Positions 1 to 60,331 are shown, counted from the stretch's first letter. The stretch: DNA of 64,000 nt from an uncultured Clostridia bacterium (GCA_934169725.1 CAKPOF010000004.1:72245-136244), one strand, 5' to 3'. Notes: generated from the sequence alone by a model not told the origin. Numbers and translations: made by a program.

Positions 1-944
1 ATAATAATATTAAATATATTTTTCTTCTTACTCTCCCAATGGATTTAATTTTTTCTATAATTAATTTAAAAAATAAAAATAAATTAATAAAAATATTAGA
101 AAATGAAAATAAAAATGAAAAAGAAAAAATAGAAAATGAAAAAAATAATTATTTAAATGAAAATAAAATATTAGAAAAAAATAATAATCAATTAGAAGAA
201 GAAATAAAAGAATTAAAAAATAAAATAAATAATAATTTAAAAATAGAAAATGAAAAAATAAAAAATAAATATTTTAATAAAATAAATAATGAAAAAATAA
301 AACAAATAAATAATTTAGAAAATATTAATGACCAAATAAATTATGTACAAAATAAATTAAATGAAACAAAAATACATTTACATAAACTAGATTTTGATAA
401 AGAAAACGTAAATCCTAAAGTTGATAATTTAATAAAAATAGAAGAAAAAATAGTTAACAATAATGAAAAAATAGTAAACTTAAGAAAATTAGAGAAAAGC
501 ATGAACATGGCAAAAGAAATTTTATTAAAAGCATATGAAAAAATGAAAAATACAGTTACCCCTAAGTTTACAGAGAATCTTTCAAAAAATATAAACAACA
601 TTACAAATGGTAAATATACAAATGTTGTATTACAAGACGATAATGGATTGATAGTAGAATTAAAGAATGGAAATTATGTTGAAGCAAATAGGTTAAGCAT
701 TGGAACTATAGACCAACTATATTTATCATTAAGACTTTCTATGATAGAAGAATTATCAAATGAAAAAATGCCAATTATTTTAGATGAGGCATTTGCATAT
801 TATGATACAACAAGATTAGAAAATATTCTAAAATATTTATATAGTGTATATCCAGAAAGACAAATAATAATATTTGCATGTACAGAAAGAGAAAAAAATA
901 TATTAGAAAAAAATAATATAAAATATAATTATATAAATTTATAA
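1..944 (+). CDS. C-terminal part of an SMC/Rad50-like (YhaN/SbcC-type) coiled-coil ATPase; the 5' end lies outside the window
   Basis: The frame is open from nt 3 to the stop at 942-944, with no stop upstream of the listed Met at 39. A long K/N/E-rich coiled coil is followed by the signature-like DQLYLSLRLS and the Walker B/D-loop PIILDEAFAYYD, as in SMC-type ABC ATPases. Confidence 0.6.
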   Translation, partial: NNIKYIFLLTLPMDLIFSIINLKNKNKLIKILENENKNEKEKIENEKNNYLNENKILEKNNNQLEEEIKELKNKINNNLKIENEKIKNKYFNKINNEKIKQINNLENINDQINYVQNKLNETKIHLHKLDFDKENVNPKVDNLIKIEEKIVNNNEKIVNLRKLEKSMNMAKEILLKAYEKMKNTVTPKFTENLSKNINNITNGKYTNVVLQDDNGLIVELKNGNYVEANRLSIGTIDQLYLSLRLSMIEELSNEKMPIILDEAFAYYDTTRLENILKYLYSVYPERQIIIFACTEREKNILEKNNIKYNYINL

Positions 945-957
945 AAATTAACATATT

Positions 958-1010
958 TGTACTCGCATTTGCTCGTTTGGTTGCTTACGTGGTATTTCAA
1001 ATAATATATT
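958..1010 (+). repeat. 5'-truncated copy (3' half only) of the structured intergenic repeat family
   Basis: ACTCGCATTTGCTCGTTTGGTTGCTTACGTGGTATTTCAAATAATAT aligns with the 3' half of the full copies (..CGCACTC..GCTCGTTTGATCGCTTACGCGGTATTTCAAAATAATAT). It lies directly after the stop codon at 944. Confidence 0.6.
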
Positions 1011-4436: not shown

Positions 4437-6764
4437 ATGCAGGAAATTTTAAAAGGTTTAAATGATAAACAATATGAAGCTGTAGTAAATACAGAAGGTC
4501 CATGCTTAATAATTGCAGGAGCTGGTAGTGGAAAAACAAAAGTACTAACACATAAAATAGCCTATTTAATAGGAGAAAAAAATGCAAAACCATGGGATAT
4601 ATTGGCAATAACATTTACAAATAAAGCAGCAAATGAAATGAAACAAAGAATTTCAGACTTAATAGGTGATGCAGCTAAAGATATTTGGATGGGAACATTT
4701 CACTCTATATGTGTGAGAATTTTAAGAAGATTCATAGATAGAATTGGTTTTGAAAGTTCATTTATTATATTTGATACATCAGACCAAAAAACATTAGTAA
4801 AAAGTTGTATGAAAGATTTAGCAATTGATGATAAATTATTTACAGATAGAAGTATTTTATCAGAAATTAGCAATGCAAAAAATGAGATGTTAGAACCGGC
4901 ACAATATACAGCTAGAGCTAGTGGAGATTTTAGAAAAGAAAAAATAGCAATAGTATATGAATTATACCAAAAGAGATTAAGAGAAAATAATGCAATAGAT
5001 TTTGATGACATAATAAATTATACAATTAAAATTTTGATGGAAAATCCAGATATTTTAGAATATTATTCAAATAAATTTAAATATGTATTAGTTGATGAGT
5101 ACCAAGATACAAACAAAGCACAGTTTACATTAGTTACATTGTTTGCATCTAAAAATGGAAATATTACAGTTGTAGGAGATAATGACCAGGGAATATATAG
5201 TTTTAGAGGGGCTGATATTTCAAACATATTAAATTTCGAAAGAGATTTTCCGGGAACAAGAATAATAAAATTAGAGCAAAATTATAGATGTACAGGAAAT
5301 ATTTTGAAAGCAGCAAATTGTGTAATAAAAAATAATGAAGTAAAATATAAAAAAGAATTATGGACAGAAAATGAAGAAGGAAATTTACCTAAAGTATATC
5401 AAGCTGATAATGAATATGATGAAGGTACATATATAGCAATGCAAATAGAACATTTAAAAAGGGAAGAATACTATAAATATTCAGATTTTGCAGTTTTGTA
5501 TAGAATGAATACACAATCAAGAGCAATAGAAGATATATTAAGAAGAGAAAATATTCCATATAAAATTGTTGGTGGTTTAAAATTCTATGAAAGAAAAGAA
5601 ATAAAAGATATTATTGCATATTTAAGGCTTATTCAAAATAGTTCAGATAATTTAAGTTTAAAAAGAATAATAAATGAGCCTAAGAGAGGTATAGGAAAAA
5701 CTAGTTTAGAAAAGGTTGAAAATTTAGCAGAAGAAAATGAAATTTCAATGTATGAAGTAATAAAAAATGCAGAACAATATGGATTAAATAGAGTTTATTT
5801 AAATTCTAGAGAGTTTGTAAATGTAATAGAGGAATTAAAAACTAAAAAAGATAAATTAGTTATTTCAGAATTAATAAAAGAAACATTGAAAAAGACAGGG
5901 TATACTAAAGCTTTGGAAAATGAAAATACTATAGAAGCAGAAAACAGAATAGAAAACTTAGAAGAATTTTTAACAGTAGCTATTGAGTTTGAAGAACAAT
6001 ATGCTGAAAATTCATTAAGTCAATTCTTAGAAGGAATTACATTATCATCAGATTTAGATAATATAGAGGAAACAGAAGATTCAGTTACACTTATGACATT
6101 ACATAGTGCAAAAGGACTTGAATTTCCAGTAGTATTTTTAGTTGGAATGGAAGAAGGAATTTTTCCGGGATATAAATCAATATCAGAACCTCAAGAATTG
6201 GAAGAAGAAAGAAGATTATGTTATGTAGGAATAACAAGAGCTAAAGAACAATTATATTTAACATGTAGTAAGCAAAGGACAATATTTGGCTCAACAAGCT
6301 ATAATCAAGTATCAAGATTTTTAAAAGAAATACCAGAAGATTTATTAGAAGGGTACAAAGAAGCATTTGGAGAAGAAGATAATAATAAAAATCAAATGTT
6401 TAAAGATTCTGCTTATACATGGTCATATGGAAGTAAAAATAATAGTAATATAAAAACATATAAAATAAATGAAAAAGAACCAATTGGTGCAACAACTGCT
6501 AATAAAAAAATTAATGAATCTGGATTTATGTTTAGAACTGCAGAAAGTTTCTTAAATAATTTAGGTAAAACAGCAAATAAAAATGCAGAGGTGGATTTAT
6601 CTAAATATGAAGAAGGTGTTAAAGTATACCATAAAAAGTTTGGAGAAGGTGTAATAAATAAAGTTGAACCAGAAGGAGAAGATTTAAAAGTAGACATAAA
6701 TTTTGAAAAAGCAGGTCATAAAAGATTAATGGCGAAATTTGCAAAATTAGAAATTTTGGATTAA
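4437..6764 (+). CDS. pcrA: ATP-dependent DNA helicase PcrA (UvrD/Rep superfamily 1)
   Basis: 775 aa. Walker A AGAGSGKT, and the motifs VDEYQDTN, TLHSAKGLEF and VGITRAK. Confidence 0.95.
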   Translation: MQEILKGLNDKQYEAVVNTEGPCLIIAGAGSGKTKVLTHKIAYLIGEKNAKPWDILAITFTNKAANEMKQRISDLIGDAAKDIWMGTFHSICVRILRRFIDRIGFESSFIIFDTSDQKTLVKSCMKDLAIDDKLFTDRSILSEISNAKNEMLEPAQYTARASGDFRKEKIAIVYELYQKRLRENNAIDFDDIINYTIKILMENPDILEYYSNKFKYVLVDEYQDTNKAQFTLVTLFASKNGNITVVGDNDQGIYSFRGADISNILNFERDFPGTRIIKLEQNYRCTGNILKAANCVIKNNEVKYKKELWTENEEGNLPKVYQADNEYDEGTYIAMQIEHLKREEYYKYSDFAVLYRMNTQSRAIEDILRRENIPYKIVGGLKFYERKEIKDIIAYLRLIQNSSDNLSLKRIINEPKRGIGKTSLEKVENLAEENEISMYEVIKNAEQYGLNRVYLNSREFVNVIEELKTKKDKLVISELIKETLKKTGYTKALENENTIEAENRIENLEEFLTVAIEFEEQYAENSLSQFLEGITLSSDLDNIEETEDSVTLMTLHSAKGLEFPVVFLVGMEEGIFPGYKSISEPQELEEERRLCYVGITRAKEQLYLTCSKQRTIFGSTSYNQVSRFLKEIPEDLLEGYKEAFGEEDNNKNQMFKDSAYTWSYGSKNNSNIKTYKINEKEPIGATTANKKINESGFMFRTAESFLNNLGKTANKNAEVDLSKYEEGVKVYHKKFGEGVINKVEPEGEDLKVDINFEKAGHKRLMAKFAKLEILD

Positions 6765-6789
6765 AACATAGTTTATTTAATAATGAAAA

Positions 6790-6845
6790 TATTTGCGCTC
6801 ATGTTCATTCTTTTGATTGCCATGCGATATTTAAAAAAATATATT
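6790..6845 (+). repeat. Degenerate relative (3'-half-like) of the structured repeat family
   Basis: TTGCGCTCATGTTCATTCTTTTGATTGCCATGCGATATTTAAAAAAATAT aligns loosely with ..CGCACTCA..CGTTCGTTTGATCGCTTACGCGGTATTTCAAAATAATAT. It lies just after the pcrA stop. Confidence 0.35.
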
Positions 6846-15859: not shown

Positions 15860-16213
15860 TTATGAAATAAGTAAAAGTAACAATAATATAAATAACATAT
15901 CATCTTTAACATTTTCTTTATATAAAATAAATAAAATAGATAAGATTATTAAATCGTCTAAATATAGTTTAAATCCTAAAATATCTAATAAAGGTTCTTC
16001 TTTATTAGATAAAGCGTCAAGATTAAGGAGAAAAGGACCAAGGTAACTATATTTAGATGATTCTTTTTTTTCTATAGAAGGCTCTATATTAATATCATTT
16101 TCTATTTTTGGAGCAGTATCTGGATGTGTTTTTTTATTATAACTAATTGGTCTAGAATAGTTTGGTGGAATTCTATAAAAAGGAAATCCATATTTAGAAA
16201 AATTATTTATCAC
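15860..16213 (-). CDS. Hypothetical 117-aa protein with a C-terminal hydrophobic tail
   Basis: Its ATG overlaps the stop of the upstream gene (ATGA at 16210-16213). The C-terminus DDLIILSILFILYKENVKDDMLFILLLLLLIS looks like a membrane hairpin. Confidence 0.5.
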   Translation of the reverse strand: MINNFSKYGFPFYRIPPNYSRPISYNKKTHPDTAPKIENDINIEPSIEKKESSKYSYLGPFLLNLDALSNKEEPLLDILGFKLYLDDLIILSILFILYKENVKDDMLFILLLLLLIS

Positions 16214-16683
16214 TTTGTTTTCTCTCCATTATTATTGTTTTGATTAAATAATTCCATAAGGTTAGTCATATTAAGAATCTTAGAATATTGATCAAGTTTA
16301 TCTTTTTTTTCATTTCTTAAGTAAGGCTTTAAAGATTGAAGTAAATTTGATCTTGGATCAGAAGAATTATTCATTTTTTCAATTATGTTTTTCATTTTCA
16401 TCATAGTATTAATATCGATGTTGTTAAAGTCAAAATTAGATGAATTAGTACGGGAATCAGAATTAGAAGTACTAGATGAGGTACTATTATTGTTAGACTC
16501 TTGACTAGAAGCATTAGGGGGAGTTGGCGTTGAAGCATTATTGGAGTTCATCATGTTAGAAAAATTTTTAAGAGCATCTGGTGGAATTTGAGAAATCATA
16601 TCATTTAAATTTCCATTGTTAAGCATGGAATTTAGTTTATCCATAGTATTTTTATCAATATTAAAATCATTCAAAAAAATCAC
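16210..16683 (-). CDS. Hypothetical 157-aa protein with an N/S-rich centre and duplicated NID.NTM helices
   Basis: RBS AAAGAGGTGA lies upstream. An N-terminal FNIDKNTMDKLNSML and a later FNNIDINTMMKMKNIIEKM flank an Asn/Ser/Thr-rich low-complexity linker. Confidence 0.55.
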   Translation of the reverse strand: MIFLNDFNIDKNTMDKLNSMLNNGNLNDMISQIPPDALKNFSNMMNSNNASTPTPPNASSQESNNNSTSSSTSNSDSRTNSSNFDFNNIDINTMMKMKNIIEKMNNSSDPRSNLLQSLKPYLRNEKKDKLDQYSKILNMTNLMELFNQNNNNGEKTK

Positions 16684-26276: not shown

Positions 26277-26307
26277 AAATTATATTATTGAAATAGTGGG
26301 GGATATT

Positions 26308-29300
26308 ATGAGAGAAAATTTAAAGAAGTTATTAACAATTATATTAATAATTATAACATTGTCATCTTTTGATGTCGTCTTTTTGGGGAACAAAATAGTA
26401 AAGGCAGTTGCTGACAGTTTAGAAACATATAGTGATAATACTAATAATGTAAATGTTAAATTTGAAGCATACTTTAAAGAAAAGGATAAAAAAACTCATA
26501 ATGTTAAAAAGAATATAAGCAATCAAGATACAAGTTTATATTTATATATAAAAGTTCAAGATAGAGGGATTTTAGATAATGCTAAAGTAAAAATAGATGA
26601 TTCTAATTTTAAGATAAAAACAAATGAGATAACTAATTCTAATATAAAAAATATCAACTTAGATTCAAATGAGATCGAACTAAATTCAATTACACATGGT
26701 AATGAAATAGAATTAGAAATACCAGTGGAATTTAAGAAAGTTGATAGCTTGAAATCTGAATATTTTTCTAAAGAAACTAATATCTCAATGGAAGGTACAT
26801 ATAGAAATGATGAAAAAGAAGAAACGATAAAAGGTAAGATAATAACAAGAATTGATTGGAGTGATGATGAAAATATTACATTATCAGAAAATATAGAAAA
26901 ATGTGTTGATTTAAAAGATAATCAAATGTTATTAGAACAAAATATTATAAGTAAAATTGAACAAGGAGAATTACCAAGAGAAAATGAAAGTTTAAAAATT
27001 GCAGTACCAGAAATATCAAATGAAAAACCTACTAATGTAAAAGTAATATTTAATGGAAGTAAAATAGAAGATTCAAATATAAGTTATGACAATAAAAATG
27101 GAGAATTAAAAATAAATGTAATAGCTAATAAAGATGAAAATGACAATACTATTTGGAGTAAAAATAAAACAAATGTATATAAAGTTATATATCTATACGA
27201 TAATGTATCAAAAGAAAATGTTAGTAAAGTAAAATTAAAAACTGAAATGAATACAAAAGTATTTACGAAAGATGTAATATCAAATAAGGCAGAAGATGAA
27301 ATAGAAGTAAATTTAAATGGTAATTTAGTAAGTATACAAAAAAATATAATACCAGGTGTTTATAAAGGATATTTGTATGCTAATTCACAAAATAGAACAG
27401 AATACAAGGAAAATAATACAGTAGAAATTTCTAATATAGATAATATTCAAAATTTAAAAATATACACAGATAATACGTATTTTAAAGATGGAAATAATAC
27501 AAAATACGATGCTAATAATTTAATAAAATATGAAGAAACATATTTAAATAAAAATAAAATGATGGAAATATTTGGTGAAGATGGATATATCAATGTTAAA
27601 AATGCTACGGGAAATACAATACAAACAATAGATAAAAATACAGAAACAGATGAAAACGGTAAAATTACTATAAAATATGAAGAAAATACAAGCAATATAG
27701 TTTTAGAAACTTCTAAACCTGTAAAAGAAGGTATGTTTACAATACAAAATCAAAAATATGTAAATGGAGAAACAGGGTATGCAAAAGAGCAATTAAAACA
27801 ATTCTTAAAACTAAATACTAATGGAAAAGTAGAAACTAATTTAAGTACAGATGAAACAAATATTGATATGAATTTGATGGATACGAAAACAGAAGCTAAA
27901 TTAGAAGTAAATAATTCAAATATATCGACATTACAAAAAAATGAAAATATTGAATTTAGACTTACTTTAAAAACTTCATCACCAGAAAACGATTTGTTTA
28001 AAAATCCTACATTTGAAATAAAAATACCAAATGTAATTTCAAATATTTCTGTAAAATCTGTAAATACAGTTTCTTCAGAAATGTTTAATATAACAGAACA
28101 AAAAATAGTAGACAACGAAAATGGAGAAAAAGTTATAAGGATATCACTACAAGGAGAACAAACAGAATATACTAATGAAATAAATGAAACAGCAATTGTA
28201 GTAAATGCAGACATTGAAACAAATATATTAACACCTAGTCAAAAAGCTAATATAGAAACAACATATACAAATGAAAATGGAAATGAAAAAACATATAAAT
28301 TAAATACAGATTTAAATATACAATCTAAATCTGGAATGATGATTTATAATAATATATCAAATTATAATAATGCTAAAGATTCAATATATACAATAGATGA
28401 TAATGTCCCAATGGGAGCTTTAGATTTACGTAGTAATTCAAATGTTGCTACAGTAAAATCTGCAATTATAAATAACTTTGGACAAGATATTGAAAATGTA
28501 ACAATTGTTGGAAGAATACCAAAAAATGGCCAAGCAGATGGTAGTGTAGATTCAACATTAATAAAAGGAATAGAAACGAATTTAAATGGAGTAGAAATAC
28601 TTTATTCAGAAAACATAAATGCTAAAAATGGGGATGATAGTTGGAAAGAAGATCCTACAAATGCAAGTATATACATGATAAAAATTGACAATATGCAGGC
28701 TCAACAAGTTGCTGCTATACAATATGAAATACAAGTTCCAGAAGATATTGGATATGGAAAGAAATTGTCAGAAGAAACAAATGTAAAATATACAATTTCA
28801 GGAAATACTCAAACACAAAAATCAAGAGTACAAGCTAAAACAGAAGAACTAATTAATAAAAATGTAATGAATTTAGCAAATTCTGCAGAAACAACAGAAA
28901 ATGGATTGACAGTAAATATTTCTACAGTTTCAGCAGGTTCTGAATTAAAAGATGGAGATAGCATATATGAAGGAGAGCACATAGTATATACAGCACAAAT
29001 AACAAATAATACAGGAAATGAACTAAAAAATGTAGGAGTAAAAGCTACACAAACAAAAGGGAAAATCTATGGGCTTTATGCAGAAGAAACATACGATCCA
29101 AATGTTGGAGAAGATTCTAAAAAAGTTCAATATAGATATAAAGAACTAGATACTAGTGAAAAAGAATTTGCAAAATCAGAAACATTAGCAAATGGAGAAA
29201 GCAAAACTATAACATATGAAATTGTAGTACAAGAAGTAGAGGGCGAAAATGAACAAACATATGGCAATTTAGTAATAAGTGCTAATGGGTTAAATAATGA

Positions 29301-31974
29301 CATAAATGTTGCAACTATAAAAAATAATATAAAACAGGCAGAAGTAAAAGCAACTTTAGAAAATGCACGTTGGGAAGGCGAAAAAATTTATTTAGAGCAA
29401 TCAGTTCAATTAAATTTGACTATAGAGAATACAAGTGGAAAAGATTTAACAAATTTAAAAGGTACAATAAAATTGCCTGATGGAGTATATTGTAAAGATC
29501 CAGATGCGTTAATTTTAAGTACAGATGGTGATGATGATAATGAAGAAGAGCAAGGTGAAGATGAAATAGAAAACAATGAAAATGATGATGCAAATGAAGA
29601 TGAAAAAGAAGATGATTCAGATGAGGCAGAAGATGGAAGTATAGATATAGGAGAAGGATCAATTATAGCAAATCGAACATATGATGACGATAAAAAAATA
29701 ATGTCTTTTGAATTGTCAGAGTTAAAAGCTCAGGAGAAGGTAAAATTGGAGTTATATGTATATGCAGAAGATTTTAAAGGTGAGTCAAAGAATTTTAACT
29801 TTTTATATAGCATGCAATCTGAAAATACGTATAATTCAAATGTAGTAAATTTGGATGTAATAAACACAATAAGAGATGTAGTAGCAGAACAGACTGCTAA
29901 TATTGATAGTGGTAAAACTTTAAAAGATGGAGATAAATTTGAATTAAAATTAACAGTAAGTAATAACGATAAAGAAGATTTATGGGTAACTATAAATGAA
30001 GAATTAGATGGTGGGTTAAATTTAAAGAGTGCAAAAATAAAGTATTTAGGAACAGAAAATGAAGTAGTAGTGTCTGGAAATGATGAAGAAGAAGATAATG
30101 AAGAATATGAAGAAGATATTACAACAGAGGAAAAAGAGAGTGAAGAGGATAGTAATGAAAATGGACAAGAAGAGATGAAAGAATATAGCAATGAAAACGA
30201 GTCGGAAGAGAATGAAAATGAGGATAAAGAAGGATTTAGTGCAAGTGTAGAACAAATAAAAGGCCAGCAAGAAATAAAAGCAAATTCCAAGATAGAAATT
30301 ATAATGCAAATAGAAGTTGAAGAAGCAAATGTTGAGGGAAGTGAAGATCAAGAAGAGAATCAAGTTGTAGTTTTAAATAGTTTAGCAACTATTACATATG
30401 GTAAAAAATCAGAATATGAAGAGTATACAACTGATTGGAATCATACATTTACTGTGAATAAAGAATTTAATGTAATGACAGAAATTGATGATGAGAAAGA
30501 ACAAGTGTCAATAACACAAACAGCAAATCCAGAAGATAAATCAATGTTACAAGATAAACAAAAAACAGAATATATCTTTGAAATAAGAAATAATAAAAAT
30601 TTTGATATTGAAACAACATTAATAGACTATATTCCTAAAGGAATTGTTGTAGAAAAAATTACTTTAGATGGAAAACAAATCGGAAATACAAATAAGATTA
30701 AAGTAAAAAATTATGAGATGGAACCGGGACAAATATCAAATTTAAAAATAGAAGGTTATTTTGATAAAAAGAAAGCGGTTAATGATCCAATAGTAAATAG
30801 TTTAACAGCAGAAACAGATGGAGAAAGCATAATATCAAATAGTATTACATATAAAACAGATAAATCTAAGGTAAATCCAAATAACCCAACGAAACCGGAT
30901 AATCCAAATAATCCTAGTAATCCAACAAATCCAGGAGATTCTAACAATGGAAATAATGCAGGAAATGGTCAATATTCGATAAGTGGAATTGCATGGGTTG
31001 ATTCAAATAAAGATGGAAAAAGAGATGATTCTGAAAAAGTACTAGCTGGAGTAGGAGTTAAAGTTATAGACGCAGAAAAGGGAACATATGTAAGTGATAT
31101 AAATGTAAAAACAAGTGATAACGGAGAATATAAAGTAAATGTAGATTCAGGAAATTATATATTGGTGTTTTCATATGATACATCAAGATACAATTTGACT
31201 CAATATAAAGCAAGTGGAGTGTCAAATGATAAGAATTCAGATGTTATTAGTAAAGATATAACAATTGATGGAAACATTGAAACAGTAGGAGCTACAGATA
31301 ATTTACAAATAGATTCATCAAATTTAATAAATATTGATATAGGTTTAACAGAGTCAGCTACCTTTGACTTAGAACTGGATAAATACATAAATGAGATTAC
31401 TGTACAAACAAACAAAAATACAACAAAATATGGATATAATAAACAAAATTTAGTAAAAGTAGAGATTGGAGCAAAAGAATTGAATAATTCTACTGTAATT
31501 ATGAGATATTCAATACAAGTAACTAATACAGGAGATGTAGCAGGTTATGTGCAAAACATTATAGATTATATGCCGTCAGATTTGAAATTTAAATCTGAAT
31601 TGAATTCAGATTGGTATGAATCTAATGGAGCATTGTATAATACAAGTTTATCAAATACAGCAATACAACCTGGAGAATCAAAAAATGTTAATTTAGTACT
31701 TGTTAAAAATATAAATGAAACTAATACTGGAACAGTTGTAAATACAGCTGAAATAGGAAAAGCAAGTAATGCATTAGAACTTGATGATGTGGATTCTACA
31801 CCAAATAATAAAAAAGCGGATGAAGATGATTATGGAAAAGCCGAAGTTATTATAAGTGTAAAGACAGGTTCTGTTGTAATGTATATATTTACAATATTCT
31901 TAAGCTTAGCAATAATTGCCCTTGGAACTTATGTAATAAACAAAAAACTTACAAAATATGATATAGAATTTTAA
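26308..31974 (+). CDS. Giant surface protein, type A' (1888 aa), paralogue of type A with acidic and Pro/Asn-rich inserts
   Basis: The start at ATG 26308 follows GTGGGGGA. The N-terminus (VKFEAYFKEKD..SLYLYIKV) and C-terminus (ISGIAWVDSNKDGKRDDSEKVLAGVGVKVID..; VAGYVQNIIDYMPSDLKFKSELNSDWY) align with protein A. The C-terminus is SVKTGS followed by a TM segment and a basic tail. Confidence 0.85.
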   Translation: MRENLKKLLTIILIIITLSSFDVVFLGNKIVKAVADSLETYSDNTNNVNVKFEAYFKEKDKKTHNVKKNISNQDTSLYLYIKVQDRGILDNAKVKIDDSNFKIKTNEITNSNIKNINLDSNEIELNSITHGNEIELEIPVEFKKVDSLKSEYFSKETNISMEGTYRNDEKEETIKGKIITRIDWSDDENITLSENIEKCVDLKDNQMLLEQNIISKIEQGELPRENESLKIAVPEISNEKPTNVKVIFNGSKIEDSNISYDNKNGELKINVIANKDENDNTIWSKNKTNVYKVIYLYDNVSKENVSKVKLKTEMNTKVFTKDVISNKAEDEIEVNLNGNLVSIQKNIIPGVYKGYLYANSQNRTEYKENNTVEISNIDNIQNLKIYTDNTYFKDGNNTKYDANNLIKYEETYLNKNKMMEIFGEDGYINVKNATGNTIQTIDKNTETDENGKITIKYEENTSNIVLETSKPVKEGMFTIQNQKYVNGETGYAKEQLKQFLKLNTNGKVETNLSTDETNIDMNLMDTKTEAKLEVNNSNISTLQKNENIEFRLTLKTSSPENDLFKNPTFEIKIPNVISNISVKSVNTVSSEMFNITEQKIVDNENGEKVIRISLQGEQTEYTNEINETAIVVNADIETNILTPSQKANIETTYTNENGNEKTYKLNTDLNIQSKSGMMIYNNISNYNNAKDSIYTIDDNVPMGALDLRSNSNVATVKSAIINNFGQDIENVTIVGRIPKNGQADGSVDSTLIKGIETNLNGVEILYSENINAKNGDDSWKEDPTNASIYMIKIDNMQAQQVAAIQYEIQVPEDIGYGKKLSEETNVKYTISGNTQTQKSRVQAKTEELINKNVMNLANSAETTENGLTVNISTVSAGSELKDGDSIYEGEHIVYTAQITNNTGNELKNVGVKATQTKGKIYGLYAEETYDPNVGEDSKKVQYRYKELDTSEKEFAKSETLANGESKTITYEIVVQEVEGENEQTYGNLVISANGLNNDINVATIKNNIKQAEVKATLENARWEGEKIYLEQSVQLNLTIENTSGKDLTNLKGTIKLPDGVYCKDPDALILSTDGDDDNEEEQGEDEIENNENDDANEDEKEDDSDEAEDGSIDIGEGSIIANRTYDDDKKIMSFELSELKAQEKVKLELYVYAEDFKGESKNFNFLYSMQSENTYNSNVVNLDVINTIRDVVAEQTANIDSGKTLKDGDKFELKLTVSNNDKEDLWVTINEELDGGLNLKSAKIKYLGTENEVVVSGNDEEEDNEEYEEDITTEEKESEEDSNENGQEEMKEYSNENESEENENEDKEGFSASVEQIKGQQEIKANSKIEIIMQIEVEEANVEGSEDQEENQVVVLNSLATITYGKKSEYEEYTTDWNHTFTVNKEFNVMTEIDDEKEQVSITQTANPEDKSMLQDKQKTEYIFEIRNNKNFDIETTLIDYIPKGIVVEKITLDGKQIGNTNKIKVKNYEMEPGQISNLKIEGYFDKKKAVNDPIVNSLTAETDGESIISNSITYKTDKSKVNPNNPTKPDNPNNPSNPTNPGDSNNGNNAGNGQYSISGIAWVDSNKDGKRDDSEKVLAGVGVKVIDAEKGTYVSDINVKTSDNGEYKVNVDSGNYILVFSYDTSRYNLTQYKASGVSNDKNSDVISKDITIDGNIETVGATDNLQIDSSNLINIDIGLTESATFDLELDKYINEITVQTNKNTTKYGYNKQNLVKVEIGAKELNNSTVIMRYSIQVTNTGDVAGYVQNIIDYMPSDLKFKSELNSDWYESNGALYNTSLSNTAIQPGESKNVNLVLVKNINETNTGTVVNTAEIGKASNALELDDVDSTPNNKKADEDDYGKAEVIISVKTGSVVMYIFTIFLSLAIIALGTYVINKKLTKYDIEF

Positions 31975-47707: not shown

Positions 47708-48865
47708 ATGAACGTAGAAAAGAAACATAATTGGCAAAGATGGATGTATTGGTTTGGATTGGGATTATCATTGATATTAATATCTAAAATATTAGATAAT
47801 TATCAAAATGTTATGGAAGTATTAAAAACATTCTTTAATGTAATTAGTCCATTTTTAATAGGAATATTTATTGCATATTTGTTATATATGCCATCAAGAA
47901 AATTTGAAAAACTGTATGGAAAATCAAAAATAAAATTTATAGCAAAAAAATCACGAATATTGGGAGTATTTACAGTATATATAATAGCAATATTATTGAT
48001 ATGTGTATTGTTTGCTGTAATAGTACCAATAGTATTTGAAAGTATTACAGACTTTATATCAGGAGTACCACATTATTATGAACAAATAATAAATACATAT
48101 AATAATTTACCAGAAGATTCAATACTAAAAAGTCAAGCCGTACAGGAAGAAATAAATAATATTCAAAACATAAATATAAAACAATATTTAAATATGGAAA
48201 TGATTTTAGAATATGTGATGAATGCAATAAGTGCAATATTTAGCGTTGTAGATTCATTTATAGCAATTATAGTATCAATATATATATTATTAGATAGAAA
48301 ACAAATATTAGGATTTTTTAAAAGATTTGCAGGAGCTATATTTAAAGAACGAACATATAAAAATATAGACAAATATTTTAATAATTCAAATGAAATATTT
48401 TTTAAATTTATAGCTAGTCAATTTTTAGATGCGATAGTTGTAGGAATACTAGTGTCAATAGCATTAAGTATAATGGGAATTAAATATGCACCATTGCTAG
48501 GAGCTTTTATAGGATTATTTAATATGATTCCATATGTTGGAGCAATTATTGCAGTTGTAATATCTGTATTAATAACAATTTTGACAGGAGGACTAACACA
48601 AGCTTTTTGGATGTTATTTGTTGTAATTATATTACAACAAATAGATGCTAATATAATAAACCCTAAAATTGTTGGTAAATCATTAGAAATAAGCCCATTG
48701 TTGGTATTATTTGCAGTTACTTTTGGTGGAGCATATTTTGGAATACTAGGTATGTTCTTAGCTGTTCCTGTAATAGCAGTTATAAAAATTTTAATAGATG
48801 ATTATATAAAATACAAAGAAATATTAAAATTGAAAAATAAAAAGAATGAAATAGAAATAAATTAA
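47708..48865 (+). CDS. AI-2E (PerM/YtvI-like) family transporter
   Basis: 385 aa, polytopic, with the conserved C-terminal block NPKIVGKSLEISPLLVLFAV..GILGMFLAVPV. Confidence 0.85.
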   Translation: MNVEKKHNWQRWMYWFGLGLSLILISKILDNYQNVMEVLKTFFNVISPFLIGIFIAYLLYMPSRKFEKLYGKSKIKFIAKKSRILGVFTVYIIAILLICVLFAVIVPIVFESITDFISGVPHYYEQIINTYNNLPEDSILKSQAVQEEINNIQNINIKQYLNMEMILEYVMNAISAIFSVVDSFIAIIVSIYILLDRKQILGFFKRFAGAIFKERTYKNIDKYFNNSNEIFFKFIASQFLDAIVVGILVSIALSIMGIKYAPLLGAFIGLFNMIPYVGAIIAVVISVLITILTGGLTQAFWMLFVVIILQQIDANIINPKIVGKSLEISPLLVLFAVTFGGAYFGILGMFLAVPVIAVIKILIDDYIKYKEILKLKNKKNEIEIN

Positions 48866-48920
48866 ATATAAATAAAAAGTAAATTCCAATACTGTTAGTT
48901 AACTTTGTAAATATAAATTT

Positions 48921-49047
48921 AATATTTATTATTTTCTCAGTACTTTGGTGTCGCAATCTATTAATAAAATTAATAGAAGATTGCTCCAAATCGCACTTAC
49001 TAACGTTCGTTTGATCGCTTACGCAGTACTTCAAAATAATAAATATT
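48921..49047 (+). repeat. Full-length copy B of the structured intergenic repeat family
   Basis: Perfect 15-bp terminal arms AATATTTATTATTTT / AAAATAATAAATATT enclose the core ..CAGTACTTTGGTGTCGCAATCT[hairpin]AGATTGCTCCAAATCGCACTTACTAACGTTCGTTTGATCGCTTACGCAGTACTTC. It lies between convergent genes. Confidence 0.85.
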
Positions 49048-49094
49048 AATTTACATATATTGTAGTTATATACTGGAATCTACTTTTTTTATTA

Positions 49095-49592
49095 TTATTT
49101 TTGTAACAAATATTGTATACCACCATTAGCAATTGCTGTTAAAGCAAGTACGATTATACCAGCAGTAAGAACACCAACAATTATAGGTGGAATTGCTTTT
49201 TTAGGTGGTAAATCTAAAAAGTTTGCAATTAAAGAACCAACCCAAGCTCCTGTACCAGGAAGTGGAATTGCCACAAATAAAAATAAGCCAAGAGCAGCAA
49301 AATTTTGAAGTTTTTCACTTTCTTCTATTTTTTTAGTAGCTCTTTCAGAAGCCCAGTCAATAACTATTTTGAAAGGTTTCCATCTACCGAAAAAATCGAA
49401 TAAAGGTCTGATATATTTAACAATGAAATATACAGGGATAATATTTCCTATAAAACTACATAAAAAAGATTCAATATAGTTTAAATGGAAAGTAAAAACT
49501 CCTATAGGAATAGCACCTCTTAATTCAATTATAGGTATCATACCAACTAAAGCAGTTAATATATATTTTATTATCAATGGTAAACTACTCAT
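49095..49592 (-). CDS. Small multidrug-export-family membrane protein (COG2426-like)
   Basis: 165 aa with four TM segments and the N-terminal IIELRGAIPIG motif typical of the family. RBS GAGGAGGA. Confidence 0.8.
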   Translation of the reverse strand: MSSLPLIIKYILTALVGMIPIIELRGAIPIGVFTFHLNYIESFLCSFIGNIIPVYFIVKYIRPLFDFFGRWKPFKIVIDWASERATKKIEESEKLQNFAALGLFLFVAIPLPGTGAWVGSLIANFLDLPPKKAIPPIIVGVLTAGIIVLALTAIANGGIQYLLQK

Positions 49593-49876
49593 AAATCCTC
49601 CTCAAATTTTAAAAATTTCTAATGTATTGTACTACATAATAAAAAAAATGTCTATAATTGAAGAAGTATTATTTAATTAATGTAAATTTTGATTTTAAAA
49701 GCACATAATATTTTATATAATGTTATGTATTTTATAAATAAATTCCTAGAGTTAACTACTCTAGGACAACTTTTCTAATTAAAAGTATAACAATAAAAAT
49801 ATGTAATATCAAGAGTTTTATTGAAAAATAATATAGGGTTATAGAAATTTTCTCTAAAAATAAATAATTATGTTTT

Positions 49877-50014
49877 AAATTCAATAAATATTATTTTTCA
49901 TACCTTGGTGTCGCAATCTATTAATTAAAAATTAATAGTAGATTGCTCCAATCGCACTCACTAGCGTTCGTTTGATCGCTTACGCGGTATTTCAAAATAA
50001 TATTTATTGAATTT
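49877..50014 (+). repeat. Full-length copy C of the structured intergenic repeat family
   Basis: Perfect 21-bp arms AAATTCAATAAATATTATTTT (49877-49897) / AAAATAATATTTATTGAATTT (49994-50014) enclose the core CATACCTTGGTGTCGCAATCT..AGATTGCTCCAATCGCACTCACTAGCGTTCGTTTGATCGCTTACGCGGTATTTC. Confidence 0.85.
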
Positions 50015-50205
50015 TTATAATTTAGTTTTATATAAAAAAATTCCTAGAGTAGTTAACTAAAAGAAAAAACATAGAAATAAAATACTACAATATATTGACT
50101 TAATACTTGTAAAAATATAAAATACAAGTATAGAAATAAATTAGTTGCAAATACTAATACTAGGATAATGAATTATCAAATAGAAAGAATTGGAGGGAAC
50201 AAAAG

Positions 50206-51552
50206 ATGGCAAAAAAGAAAAGTAGCAAAACGAAAGAAAAACTGAAAGGAAGGAATGGTATAACATTAATTGCACTAGTTATAACCATCATAGTACTTTT
50301 GATACTAGCAGGAGTAACGATAGCAAGCATAACAGGAGAAAATGGAATATTAAGTAAAGCAACAAATGCAAGAGATAATAATGCCAAAGTATCAGCAGAG
50401 GAAAGAGTAAAAACAGAAGTATTAGGAAGCTATGGAAGTGATGGAAAATTAAGCTTAGATGACTTAAATAATAATTTAAAAAACGTAGACGGTTTGAAAT
50501 ATAACGAAAAGAAAATATCAGCTGACAATAAAATAGAAAGTTTGCCAGCAACAGTAAATGTGGATGGATATGATGTAGTAATAACTGAGCAAGGAAATGT
50601 AGAAAAACCAAAAAAATTAGAAGATGCAAAAACTGATGATATGTTAACAAAAACCAATGATACACCAATAACAGTTGATAATAAAACAGTAAAAATCCCA
50701 GCAGGATTTAAAGTAGCAGATGATAGTGGGACAACAATAGATGAAGGAATAGTAATAGAAGATGGTGAAAGGAATCAATTTGTATGGGTACCAGTAAGTA
50801 AAGAAAATTTTGCAACAGAATTTGTGAGAAGAGATAATGGAAGTTTACAATCATGGGGTTCTTACTGTGGAGAAGCAAATGCTAAAGGTGAAAATGAAAA
50901 AGTTACTGAAACAGAAACAACCAAAAAAGAAGCTATAAAAATGTATGCAAGTGTAGAAAGAAATGAAGGGTTTTATATAGCAAGATATGAGGCTGGAAAA
51001 GAAGGAGAAAATGTTGTTTCAAAAAAAGGAGCAGATGTATATAATTATATACCATGGTCTGCAAATGGAGATAATATACAAGAAACTACAGGAACAACTG
51101 GAGGAGCAGTAGAACTATCAAGAAATTTTGCAAATGTAAAGAATTACAAAACAGTAACAAGTACATTAATATATGGAGTGCAGTGGGATGCTGTAATGAA
51201 ATGGATGGAAAACGTAAGTAATCCAAATGTAGAAGGAAAAACATATATACAAGATAGTACAGGAATGGGATGGTATAGTGACAATTATAATTCAGGAAAT
51301 TCCGATTATAAAACTGGTATAGATATAGGAGAAGAGAATAAAGGTTCAAATCAAGTAAAAAAAATATATGATCTTGCAGGAAATGTATACGAATGGACAA
51401 TGGAATCTTTCAACACCGGCATTCGAGTTACTAGGGGAGGTTTTTACAACAATACAGGCTCTAACTATCCGGCTTCTTATCGTAGCGCCTACTATCCTTC
51501 CTGCAGCTTTTTTTACATTGGTTTTCGCCCCACTTTATTCTTGAATAGCTGA
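50206..51552 (+). CDS. Pilin-like N-terminal anchor fused to a formylglycine-generating-enzyme (FGE-sulfatase/SUMF1) fold domain
   Basis: 448 aa. A basic leader is followed by NGITLIALVITIIVLLILAGVTI, which is prepilin-like but has Ala where Glu5 would be. The C-terminal domain carries GFYIARYEA, IYDLAGNVYEWT, RVTRGG and IGFRP, as in FGE-sulfatase-fold proteins. Confidence 0.8.
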   Translation: MAKKKSSKTKEKLKGRNGITLIALVITIIVLLILAGVTIASITGENGILSKATNARDNNAKVSAEERVKTEVLGSYGSDGKLSLDDLNNNLKNVDGLKYNEKKISADNKIESLPATVNVDGYDVVITEQGNVEKPKKLEDAKTDDMLTKTNDTPITVDNKTVKIPAGFKVADDSGTTIDEGIVIEDGERNQFVWVPVSKENFATEFVRRDNGSLQSWGSYCGEANAKGENEKVTETETTKKEAIKMYASVERNEGFYIARYEAGKEGENVVSKKGADVYNYIPWSANGDNIQETTGTTGGAVELSRNFANVKNYKTVTSTLIYGVQWDAVMKWMENVSNPNVEGKTYIQDSTGMGWYSDNYNSGNSDYKTGIDIGEENKGSNQVKKIYDLAGNVYEWTMESFNTGIRVTRGGFYNNTGSNYPASYRSAYYPSCSFFYIGFRPTLFLNS

Positions 51553-59702: not shown

Positions 59703-59924
59703 CTAAGTTGATGTATTGTTTAATGTATCTAGGTAAATTTGGTCAACATTATTAATATCTTTTTCATATTCTTTTTTTATTTTATCAGTTTCTGAAGCTT
59801 GGGCTTGAATTTTATTACTGCTATTAAAATATAAACTAGATAAAATAATTAAAAAGAAAAGTATTGCTAATAATATGAATAGAGTTATAGCACCATTTTC
59901 ATTTTTAAAAAATTTTTTTCGCAT
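59703..59924 (-). CDS. Small (73-aa) membrane protein with a pseudopilin-like N-terminus
   Basis: RBS AAGGAGA. MRKKFFKNENGAITLFILLAILFFLIILSS resembles the NG-ITL-hydrophobic leader of the 448-aa protein at 50206. Confidence 0.5.
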   Translation of the reverse strand: MRKKFFKNENGAITLFILLAILFFLIILSSLYFNSSNKIQAQASETDKIKKEYEKDINNVDQIYLDTLNNTST

Positions 59925-60059
59925 AGTATAATCTCCTTAATTTATAAAATCTTATAACTATTGTAATATAGTTATAAGAAAAAAGCAATTATTAATTAAT
60001 AAAGTTTACAAAAAGAAGTAATATAATTACTAGTTATAACTATATTAGACAGAATATTT

Positions 60060-60208
60060 AAAATTAATACTATATTATTTTTTTTCATACCTTGGTGTCG
60101 CAATCTGCATATTAAATTTAATAGTATGTAGATTGCTCCAAATCGCACTCAAATACGCTCGTTTGATCGCTTACGCGGTATTTCAAAAAATAATATAGTA
60201 TTAATTTT
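60060..60208 (+). repeat. Full-length copy D of the structured intergenic repeat family
   Basis: Perfect 24-bp arms AAAATTAATACTATATTATTTTTT (60060-60083) / AAAAAATAATATAGTATTAATTTT (60185-60208) enclose the core CATACCTTGGTGTCGCAATCTGCATATTAAATTTAATAGTATGTAGATTGCTCCAAATCGCACTCAAATACGCTCGTTTGATCGCTTACGCGGTATTTC. Confidence 0.85.
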
Positions 60209-60331
60209 AAAAAACGACAAATTAGTTGTAAAATTTAGTATAATCTGATTCTTGCAAAGTGCTATAAAACTTGACAAATTGGCTATTTGAAAGTAAAATA
60301 TAATAGAATAATTAAAAGGAGAAATTTGTTC

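Follow-up and report, generated by a model that had tools for sequence, protein, structure and literature searches.

Long-hairpin MITEs are known from several bacteria and include Correia/NEMIS (Neisseria), RUP and BOX (Streptococcus pneumoniae), ERIC/IRU, and bcr1 (Bacillus cereus group). They are non-coding intergenic units of 100-350 bp, present in many copies per genome, bounded by terminal inverted repeats (TIRs) and target duplications, mobilised in trans, and co-transcribed with their neighbours as stable hairpins, and the repeat family described here appears to resemble them in each of these respects. The described families have conserved ends, with one end type per family, whereas the near-invariant part of the present family is an internal branched-hairpin core of ~95 nt, found in at least 48 species; its arms are specific to the locus or subfamily, and the same core is common to chassis with unrelated ends. 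TIRs together with a short target duplication are the signature of a DDE-type cut- or copy-and-paste transposase; HUH Y1 elements (IS200/IS605, RAYT-type) insert with neither TIRs nor target duplications. Invertons, the invertible promoters and switches of gut bacteria, are a further class for comparison and are exemplified by the Mpi-type of Bacteroides and by flgB and cwpV, of the RecV type, in C. difficile.

The window (the whole 64-kb stretch of DNA that was analysed, from an uncultured Clostridia bacterium) has 26% G+C and carries housekeeping genes of the spore-forming low-GC Firmicute type (prfA, pcrA, mreBCD, spoIIE, rpoB, rpoC, gdpP and rplI). An earlier note had reported three full copies (B, C and D) of an unrecognised structured repeat; all three were found at the coordinates it gave, on the + strand, and were scored by a covariance model at 106-118 bits (E 1e-27 to 1e-30). 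Its two longest invariant blocks, TTGGTGTCGCAATCT (a 15-mer) and CGTTTGATCGCTTACGC (a 17-mer), were each present exactly three times in the window, the chance expectation for the latter being 0.01 even with up to 3 mismatches. The positions of the three full copies held, but each span reported for them takes in, besides the core, perfect inverted-repeat arms (17, 21 and 27 bp), and two extra 3'-half remnants had been overlooked. The features are as follows.

48874..49088, + strand: copy B, whole invertible unit between its outer inverted repeats
48874-48888 / 49074-49088: copy B, outer inverted repeat, AAAAAGTAAATTCCA / TGGAATCTACTTTTT
48919-48935 / 49033-49049: copy B, perfect inner arms
48940..49029, + strand: copy B, core
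48940-48944 / 49025-49029: copy B core, P2, GTACT / AGTAC; followed by TTGG/CCAA
48953-48959 / 48978-48984: copy B core, P3, GCAATCT / AGATTGC
following P3: copy B core, TCCAAATCGCACT box and then the small P4 hairpin
49007-49024: copy B core, invariant tail, TCGTTTGATCGCTTACGC
49750..50058, + strand: copy C, whole invertible unit
49750-49766 / 50042-50058: copy C, 17-bp GTTAAC-type terminal inverted repeat, AGTTAACTACTCTAGGA / TCCTAGAGTAGTTAACT
49877-49897 / 49994-50014: copy C, perfect inner arms
49900-49990: copy C, core
60057..60211, + strand: copy D, upstream of the gdpP promoter
60057-60083 / 60185-60211: copy D, perfect arms of 27 bp; core at 60087-60181
937..1005, + strand: 3'-half remnant, 43.3 bits, E 3e-9 (covariance model)
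6764..6840, + strand: decayed 3'-half remnant, 21.9 bits, E 0.003 (covariance model)

Each whole copy, core and arms together, folds into a single long hairpin (z-scores -5.4, -6.9 and -11). The remnant at 937-1005 consists of P4, the tail CTCGTTTGGTTGCTTACGT, the 3' arm of P2 (GGTAT) and the A-run arm, and starts ~10 nt past the stop of an ORF at 39..944, and that at 6764-6840 lies directly 3' of the stop codon of pcrA (4437..6764), so that both abut the stop codon of their upstream gene. The closing helix had been read correctly as GTACT/AGTAC in B and ATACC/GGTAT in C and D, as had the three TCGC boxes, which are invariant or near-invariant family-wide, and the absence of an ORF, long ORFs over the core being not beyond chance. 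The GCAATCT/AGATTGC hairpin was also present, but the 3-nt bulge attributed to it is limited to the window copies, a 1x1 mismatch being found family-wide.

Other features of the window and of related contigs (loci and contigs are given L numbers) were noted as well. Four consecutive giant ORFs of 1654, 1338, 1892 and 1768 aa with common internal repeats occupy 17010-37298; SpaA, SdrD_B, DUF11 or CarboxypepD_reg domains were detected in them, the ORF at 26296-31974 having no Pfam match at all, and they are probably a paralogous surface-adhesin cluster. An ORF downstream of copy C (50206-51552, 448 aa) gave a weak FGE-sulfatase match; it is missing in related species, where rpoB directly follows, and is variable among strains (86% identity in L121), with many strain contigs ending within it. 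Between rpoC and copy D, a 73-aa ORF without Pfam match (59703-59924, - strand) is exactly conserved in many strain contigs and absent at the same place in L081. Some strains of one related species (L273-L282, ~16040-16680) carry an ORF of 165-200 aa, likewise without Pfam match, between rpoB and rpoC.

For the family as a whole, species-representative genomes were scanned with a 17-nt degenerate pattern, which gave at least 115 loci, with ~100 true copies among the matches listed; the other loci were chance matches in unrelated high-GC genomes. Core carriers, again among the matches listed, are at least 48 species-level MAGs of uncultured gut Clostridia, obtained from human, rabbit, mouse and goat gut and including Clostridium sp. 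CAG:440, and several copies per MAG are common. The copy count that had been proposed as a check was thereby run, the ~95-nt core recurring ~100 times among the fetched loci, in at least 48 genomes. Its consensus on the 5' side is composed of the arm, an A/T-only stretch of ~10 nt, T5, P2 (5 bp), TTG(K)GTGTC and P3 (GCAAYYT/ARRTTGC plus a variable extension), followed by TCCAATCGCACTC, P4 (a small hairpin whose length varies), TCGTTTGRTCGCTTACGC and P2', and on the 3' side P2' is succeeded by TTC-A5, an A/T-only stretch of ~10 nt and arm'. Sequence conservation ends ~22 nt outside P2 on both sides.

In a model-based alignment of 100 copies, 90.9% of cells were paired, against 29-44% when partners were slid by 1-3 columns; changes on both sides were seen in 16 of the 20 pairs of P2, P3 and P4, the covariation score was reached by none of 500 shuffles, and mutual information recovered exactly the proposed pairs. 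The conserved fold that had been claimed is borne out by this strong covariation across P2, P3 and P4, and because the covariation extends across the family, the compensatory change in copy B is real and family-typical. The core further contains ~45 invariant unpaired nucleotides. One locus (L088, 128-224) carries a core variant without P4 and TCGTTTGG, which fits a deletion between two direct TCGC boxes; these boxes can therefore serve as slippage or recombination points.

That the family was unrecognised agrees with the absence of an Rfam match: Rfam 15 at the gathering threshold gave no match in the whole 64-kb window, and over 48700-50300 at E up to 10 only a spurious miRNA match (E = 4) was obtained. 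INPHARED and PLSDB yielded no real match to the repeat, and a literature search returned neither a paper giving the sequence of the core or of the ends nor a described family that fits. The repeat forms the conserved centre of small mobile DNA hairpins of MITE-like type, which make up a family not described before. Several other identities were considered and rejected, namely a phage or plasmid origin (ten IMG/VR pattern matches, all rejected by the covariance model), a retron-like ncRNA, tRNA-like element or known self-cleaving ribozyme (no RT gene nearby, no Rfam match), a cis-regulator of one gene class (no recurrent neighbour; the largest ORF cluster had 7 members in 6 loci), and an integron attC site, the layout of which is the opposite, with outer R/L boxes and a variable centre in attC and a conserved centre with a variable outer stem here.

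Nearly every full core copy forms the apex of a long palindrome with arms of 22 to at least 85 bp (paired positions of the longest: L031, 85/85; L085, 53/53; L045, 44/44; L102, 68/71); these long flanking inverted repeats had been missed in the earlier description, which was right as to the core. The arms vary by locus and group into subfamilies that recur within one MAG and across species, and because arm subfamilies are common to loci with unrelated far flanks, the arms travel with the core. Snap-back or self-primed synthesis of the arms from flanking DNA was rejected as a general mechanism on the same grounds, the arms arriving with the element. Perfect locus-specific arms of 50-85 bp are not maintainable by selection on a fold, which implies concerted evolution of both arms; arm-to-arm recombination (visible here as flipping) and quasi-palindrome correction are known mechanisms of this kind, and the same homogenising processes can mimic 'compensatory' change in small helices.

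Two further palindromic repeats were encountered. At L031 (7660-7830), L065 (7540-7700) and L085 (1850-1905 and 2020-2075), the outer arms are composed of tandem or inverted units of a different small palindrome (GTCATTGGTTCCGGGTTTGGTTGACAC-like; GCCACGGTTCCGGGTTTAAATGGCAAT), which looks like a separate REP-like family of these genomes. Palindromes with the motif TTGGGGACG recur without the core at L118 (7134-7210, a hairpin with 27-bp arms after the AI-2E gene), at L199 (23-85, in the loop of the 63-bp T1 mini-element described below) and in the GGGACATGGGGACG outer arms of L009, L013, L029 and L058; these palindromes may be another hairpin element family or share a binding motif.

Evidence of mobility was obtained from the ends of the palindromes. 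Subfamilies have TIRs of 14-18 bp (GTTACTGGTCAGCC or TTCAAGTTTCGAC) flanked by perfect 8-bp target duplications. In T1 (ends GTTACTGGTCAGCCTT) and T2 (ends TTCAAGTTTCGACTTTTT), the left and right ends are identical at 10/12 positions or more, and the elements are 189-216 bp long, with a longer variant of 322-340 bp. The target duplications are as follows.

T1, L012: AAATATTT
T1, L016: ATTAATAG
T1, L021: AATTAATT
T1, L026: CAACAGTG
T1, L084: AAAAAGTA
T1, L096: AATTATTT
T1, L007: TAGTAGTA
T2, L030: TTATAGAA
T2, L049: TTCATTAT

Full elements range overall from 167 to 340 bp and have no coding capacity. An unbiased scan of palindrome ends gave four perfect 8/8 duplications, with 0.2 expected by chance; cleanly definable ends with duplications are confined to ~15-20% of copies, and no clean 8-bp duplication was seen at window copies B, C and D. 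The duplicated 8-mers are mutually unrelated in sequence, and no conserved tetra- or pentanucleotide was found at the insertion point.

Filled and empty sites were compared among strains with an identical AI-2E transporter protein. The empty site (L284, L287, L288, L290 and L292) reads ...GTTAAAATAAAAATAATAAAAGTGAATGG... in a 29-nt gap between two genes, and these contigs carry a single AAATAATA; the filled site (L289 and L135) reads AAGTAATA / GTTACAATTCAC..core..GCGAATTGTAAC / AAATAATA, with a 167-bp element, and is a simple 8-bp duplication of the AAATAATA of the empty site. No palindrome is present at the empty site, and the hairpin therefore arrives with the element. The sites of B and C are both empty in relatives with 69-79% AI-2E identity (L116, L118 and L120), which keep the gene order AI-2E / Sm_multidrug_ex / rpoB; one relative in this identity range has a copy where the window has none, and a copy whose arms are unrelated occupies the place analogous to that of copy D in L081, a related species. 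Insertion into pre-existing terminator hairpins was rejected (no T-run after the palindromes; empty site without palindrome) and may apply to single cases only, the outer repeat of copy B looking terminator-like. At the intergenic spot of the L289/L135 element, L283 (4170-4395) and L286 (4232-4457) contain a core-less AT-rich insertion of ~200 bp flanked by AGAAGTG direct repeats; the gap is an insertion hot spot.

TIRs, a fixed-length duplication and presence/absence polymorphism identify the repeat as a non-autonomous TIR transposon, and together with its small, non-coding, multi-copy nature these are the features of a MITE. Since whole units are inserted with an 8-bp duplication, a transposase supplied in trans, as is typical of DDE enzymes, is implied by the target duplications. 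No transposase with matching ends was found in the 64-kb window, beside solo ends or in metagenome matches (the T1 end gave mostly chance matches in environmental contigs, and the T2 end was not found in IMG/VR), and no recurrent gene was found beside the copies in the fetched loci.

The repeat family is thus read with high confidence as a mobile element. The more specific reading preferred here, to which a probability of about 0.6 is assigned, is a family of non-autonomous, MITE-like, TIR-bounded hairpin transposons with a conserved branched-hairpin DNA core. A full element consists, in its 5' half, of the 8-bp target duplication, the TIR, a subfamily-specific arm, the A/T-only stretch with the T-run and the ~95-nt core, and, in its 3' half, of the A-run with the A/T-only stretch, the complementary arm, the TIR and the second 8-bp target duplication. 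Whole units enter ordinary AT-rich intergenic DNA with duplication of 8 bp, which implies a transposase acting in trans, and are gained and lost between related species and strains. The arms would be held complementary by concerted evolution (arm-to-arm recombination or template switching) and not by selection on an RNA fold, and the folded-DNA core would be a docking platform for a mobilising or recombining protein.

The relationship between core and chassis bears on what the core may be. Core-bearing hairpin units sit in several TIR chassis with unrelated ends (T1, T2 and others), and the core is far better conserved than the chassis ends; a conserved centre common to chassis with unrelated ends is not explained by a simple MITE model. 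Core-less elements also occur, namely a T1 mini-element of 63 bp whose loop is 19 nt long and whose target duplication is CATTGCTC (L199; also L180 and L259), and, for T2, an element that has another centre and a duplication of 9 bp (L006). At L084 and L026, the T1 ends plus ~16 nt per side amount to 63 nt once the inner unit (25-bp arms and core) is removed, which would fit the entry of a core-bearing hairpin into the mini-element's loop. Extensions of P3 of up to ~85 nt (L075, L104, L014 and others) and an extra hairpin inside TCGTTT^GRTCGC (L025 and L113) were also observed. It is possible, and is put forward tentatively, that the core is a new cis-acting DNA module, read as folded DNA by an enzyme, which colonises the apices of palindromic transposons and hairpin loops and makes them invertible. 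If this were true, the core would amount to a 'flip-flop' hairpin cassette that propagates itself and falls outside the MITEs, invertons, attC sites and HUH elements; its strand-specific activity would explain the 47:7 co-orientation with genes or replication described next.

Rather doubtful is the reading of the core as a structured non-coding RNA, made by read-through of the + strand and serving, for example, as a processing or stability element atop an RNase III-type long hairpin, with the MITE as its vehicle. The multi-helix junction, the ~45 invariant unpaired nucleotides and the strong covariation speak for it, conserved unpaired junction nucleotides with covarying helices being equally the look of a functional RNA, as do the z-scores of the folds (-5 to -11). 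Short gaps in apparent operons are filled by many copies, which must therefore be transcribed, and in the 8-kb loci the element is on the strand of both flanking genes 47 times and opposite to both 7 times. This co-orientation is not predicted by a symmetric, flippable TIR element and therefore points to a strand-specific effect of the core, either RNA-level or replication-related, for which it is the chief argument.

Against an RNA, pairing in the helices is nearly all Watson-Crick, G:U being about as rare as A:C in the core (44 vs 40; P2, 1 vs 12; P4, 3 vs 7), with recurrent U:G only in the apical part of P3, and a strict count of arm mismatches gave 16 G:U vs 12 A:C, isolated among 2334 Watson-Crick pairs. 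A strand call from arm wobble pairs (G:T 185 vs A:C 86) was discarded as an artefact of lenient G:T scoring. The + and - strands fold equally well as single-stranded DNA, no conserved promoter was found across copies, the hairpin is not followed by a T-run (2.8 T on average in 9 nt), copies are found in convergent and divergent gaps in equal numbers (13 vs 13), no Rfam match was obtained up to E 10, and segments flip in place, as described below. With no wobble signature, equal folding of both strands and neither a conserved promoter nor a T-run, a DNA structure is favoured over RNA, and the small structured RNAs offered as an alternative in the earlier note are weakened by these results and by the flips.

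For the preferred hairpin transposon, it is thus inferred that the core acts as folded DNA, as a branched T/Y-shaped hairpin tip or a cruciform. Judging from sequence conservation, the unpaired blocks, including the TCGC boxes, are probably a cis-acting platform for a mobilising or recombining protein; purifying selection on ~45 unpaired nucleotides in at least 48 species suggests a cis-acting site for propagation of the element. Confidence in what the core does is low, and a host-level RNA function is possible.

Inversion in place was examined in same-species contigs fetched by exact match to the small exporter protein between B and C (n=10). Copy B is inverted in 4/10 strain contigs (L122, L124, L126 and L127), which are independent assemblies ~96-97% identical to the window; the inverted segment comprises all between AAAAAGTAAATTCCA and TGGAATyTACTTTTT, and the flanks are collinear. 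Copy C is inverted in 1/10 (L123, 99.6% identical to the window), the flipped segment (49767-50041) lying between the 17-bp repeats AGTTAACTACTCTAGGA / TCCTAGAGTAGTTAACT. Base-by-base comparison, BLAST and covariance-model strand calls were concordant on the inversions, and no other inversion was found across 7.5 kb. Mis-assembly is unlikely, since assembler k-mers are much longer than the bounding repeats and the two inner arms do not match perfectly. These strain-level inversions of B and C had been overlooked in the earlier note, which had correctly offered a mobile hairpin as one possibility. Copy D showed no inversion in four strain contigs, the L135-type copy has a single orientation in the few strains seen, and across species an element beside the same gene has opposite orientations in L042 and L063.

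The exchange point in both B and C is the outermost short repeat, rather than the longer, closer inner arms, and the bounding repeats of B (AAAAAGTAAATTCCA) and C (AGTTAACTACTCTAGGA) are unrelated in sequence; flipping is therefore read as structure-driven. It is explained most simply by recombination, or a switch of template, where a stalled hairpin has its base, and a recombinase of relaxed specificity is a possible alternative agent. For a hairpin transposon, flipping would be a by-product of the strong hairpin, through replication template switching or through recombination at the first short basal inverted repeat. To our knowledge, no in-place flipping has been described for Correia, RUP, BOX, ERIC or bcr1. 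A hairpin with a 9-bp stem at 49744-49766 (TCCTAGAGT-TAACT-ACTCTAGGA) is formed by the left repeat of copy C and a second, partial version of its right repeat; with copy C flipped (L123), a T7 run follows and the hairpin looks like a strong intrinsic terminator, whereas in the window allele it does not, and flipping of copy C could toggle a terminator at this position.

The copies are unlikely to be classical invertons, i.e. phase switches flipped by a recombinase, with the core as an orientation-dependent regulatory cassette or recombinase accessory site. They resemble invertons as intergenic segments of 190-275 bp with 15-17-bp inverted repeats and both orientations within one species; 2/4 strain-level loci are inverted exactly between such repeats, one of them in a 99.6% identical strain, and exchange at the outermost repeat is unlike simple homology-driven recombination. 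Weak outward promoter-like motifs also lie on invariant core bases (TTGCGA-17-AATAAT, -; TTGATC-18-AATAAT, +), but they match at only 9/12 positions and are common in the AT-rich background. The repeats of B and C show no conserved motif, no recombinase gene is located in the 64-kb window or recurrently near copies, the neighbours are housekeeping genes (prfA, pcrA, rpoB/C and gdpP) and not surface or phase-variable genes, and the units are multi-copy and demonstrably transposable, with the interior conserved and not the recombination sites. The repeat thus falls within the operational definition of an inverton but, as to mechanism, shows no shared site motif and no nearby recombinase, and offers promoter-like matches at 9/12 positions.

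The earlier proposal of a non-autonomous hairpin moved by an HUH enzyme stands as to the mobile hairpin, whereas its movement as ssDNA by such an enzyme (IS200/IS605 TnpA, RAYT, or a Rep-like nickase with flip-flop hairpin transfer) is very improbable, since HUH elements make neither TIRs nor duplications and here clean TIRs, 8-bp duplications and a simple-duplication empty site are present, with no fixed tetra- or pentanucleotide at the insertion point and no HUH gene (Y1 transposase or RAYT) among the genes of the 64-kb window, even though the branched T/Y-shaped hairpin, the repeated TCGC tetranucleotides, the hairpin-tip flip-flop, the recurrent gain of further hairpins in hairpin loops and an orientation bias that would put the + strand on the lagging-strand template are in its favour. 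Likewise, PATEs derived from IS200/IS605 and REP/RAYT elements are hairpin-rich, non-coding and multi-copy with a strand or orientation bias, but insert by a fixed short motif without TIRs or duplications. AAV (parvovirus) ITRs share a long stem, an asymmetric branched tip, two inverted configurations and tetranucleotide repeats by the junction as a structural analogy only; they are genome termini with Rep-mediated hairpin transfer, whereas the present elements lie inside the chromosome as insertions flanked by target duplications, and no Rep was found.

A MITE with its interior conserved instead of its ends is unusual and points to a protein-DNA (or RNA) interaction. The family also calls for caution, because strong 'covariation' around palindromic DNA can occur without RNA function, and the balance of G:U to A:C is a cheap test by which the two can be separated. 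The carriers are uncultured, small-genome, low-GC gut Clostridia; they abound in humans, rabbits, mice and ruminants, and MAGs are almost the only source of knowledge on them. In these bacteria a high-copy hairpin transposon inserts between, and at times inside, housekeeping operons; it also flips between strains, generates structural variation at strain level as well as breaks in assemblies, and is a potential modulator of neighbour-gene expression and a handy strain marker.
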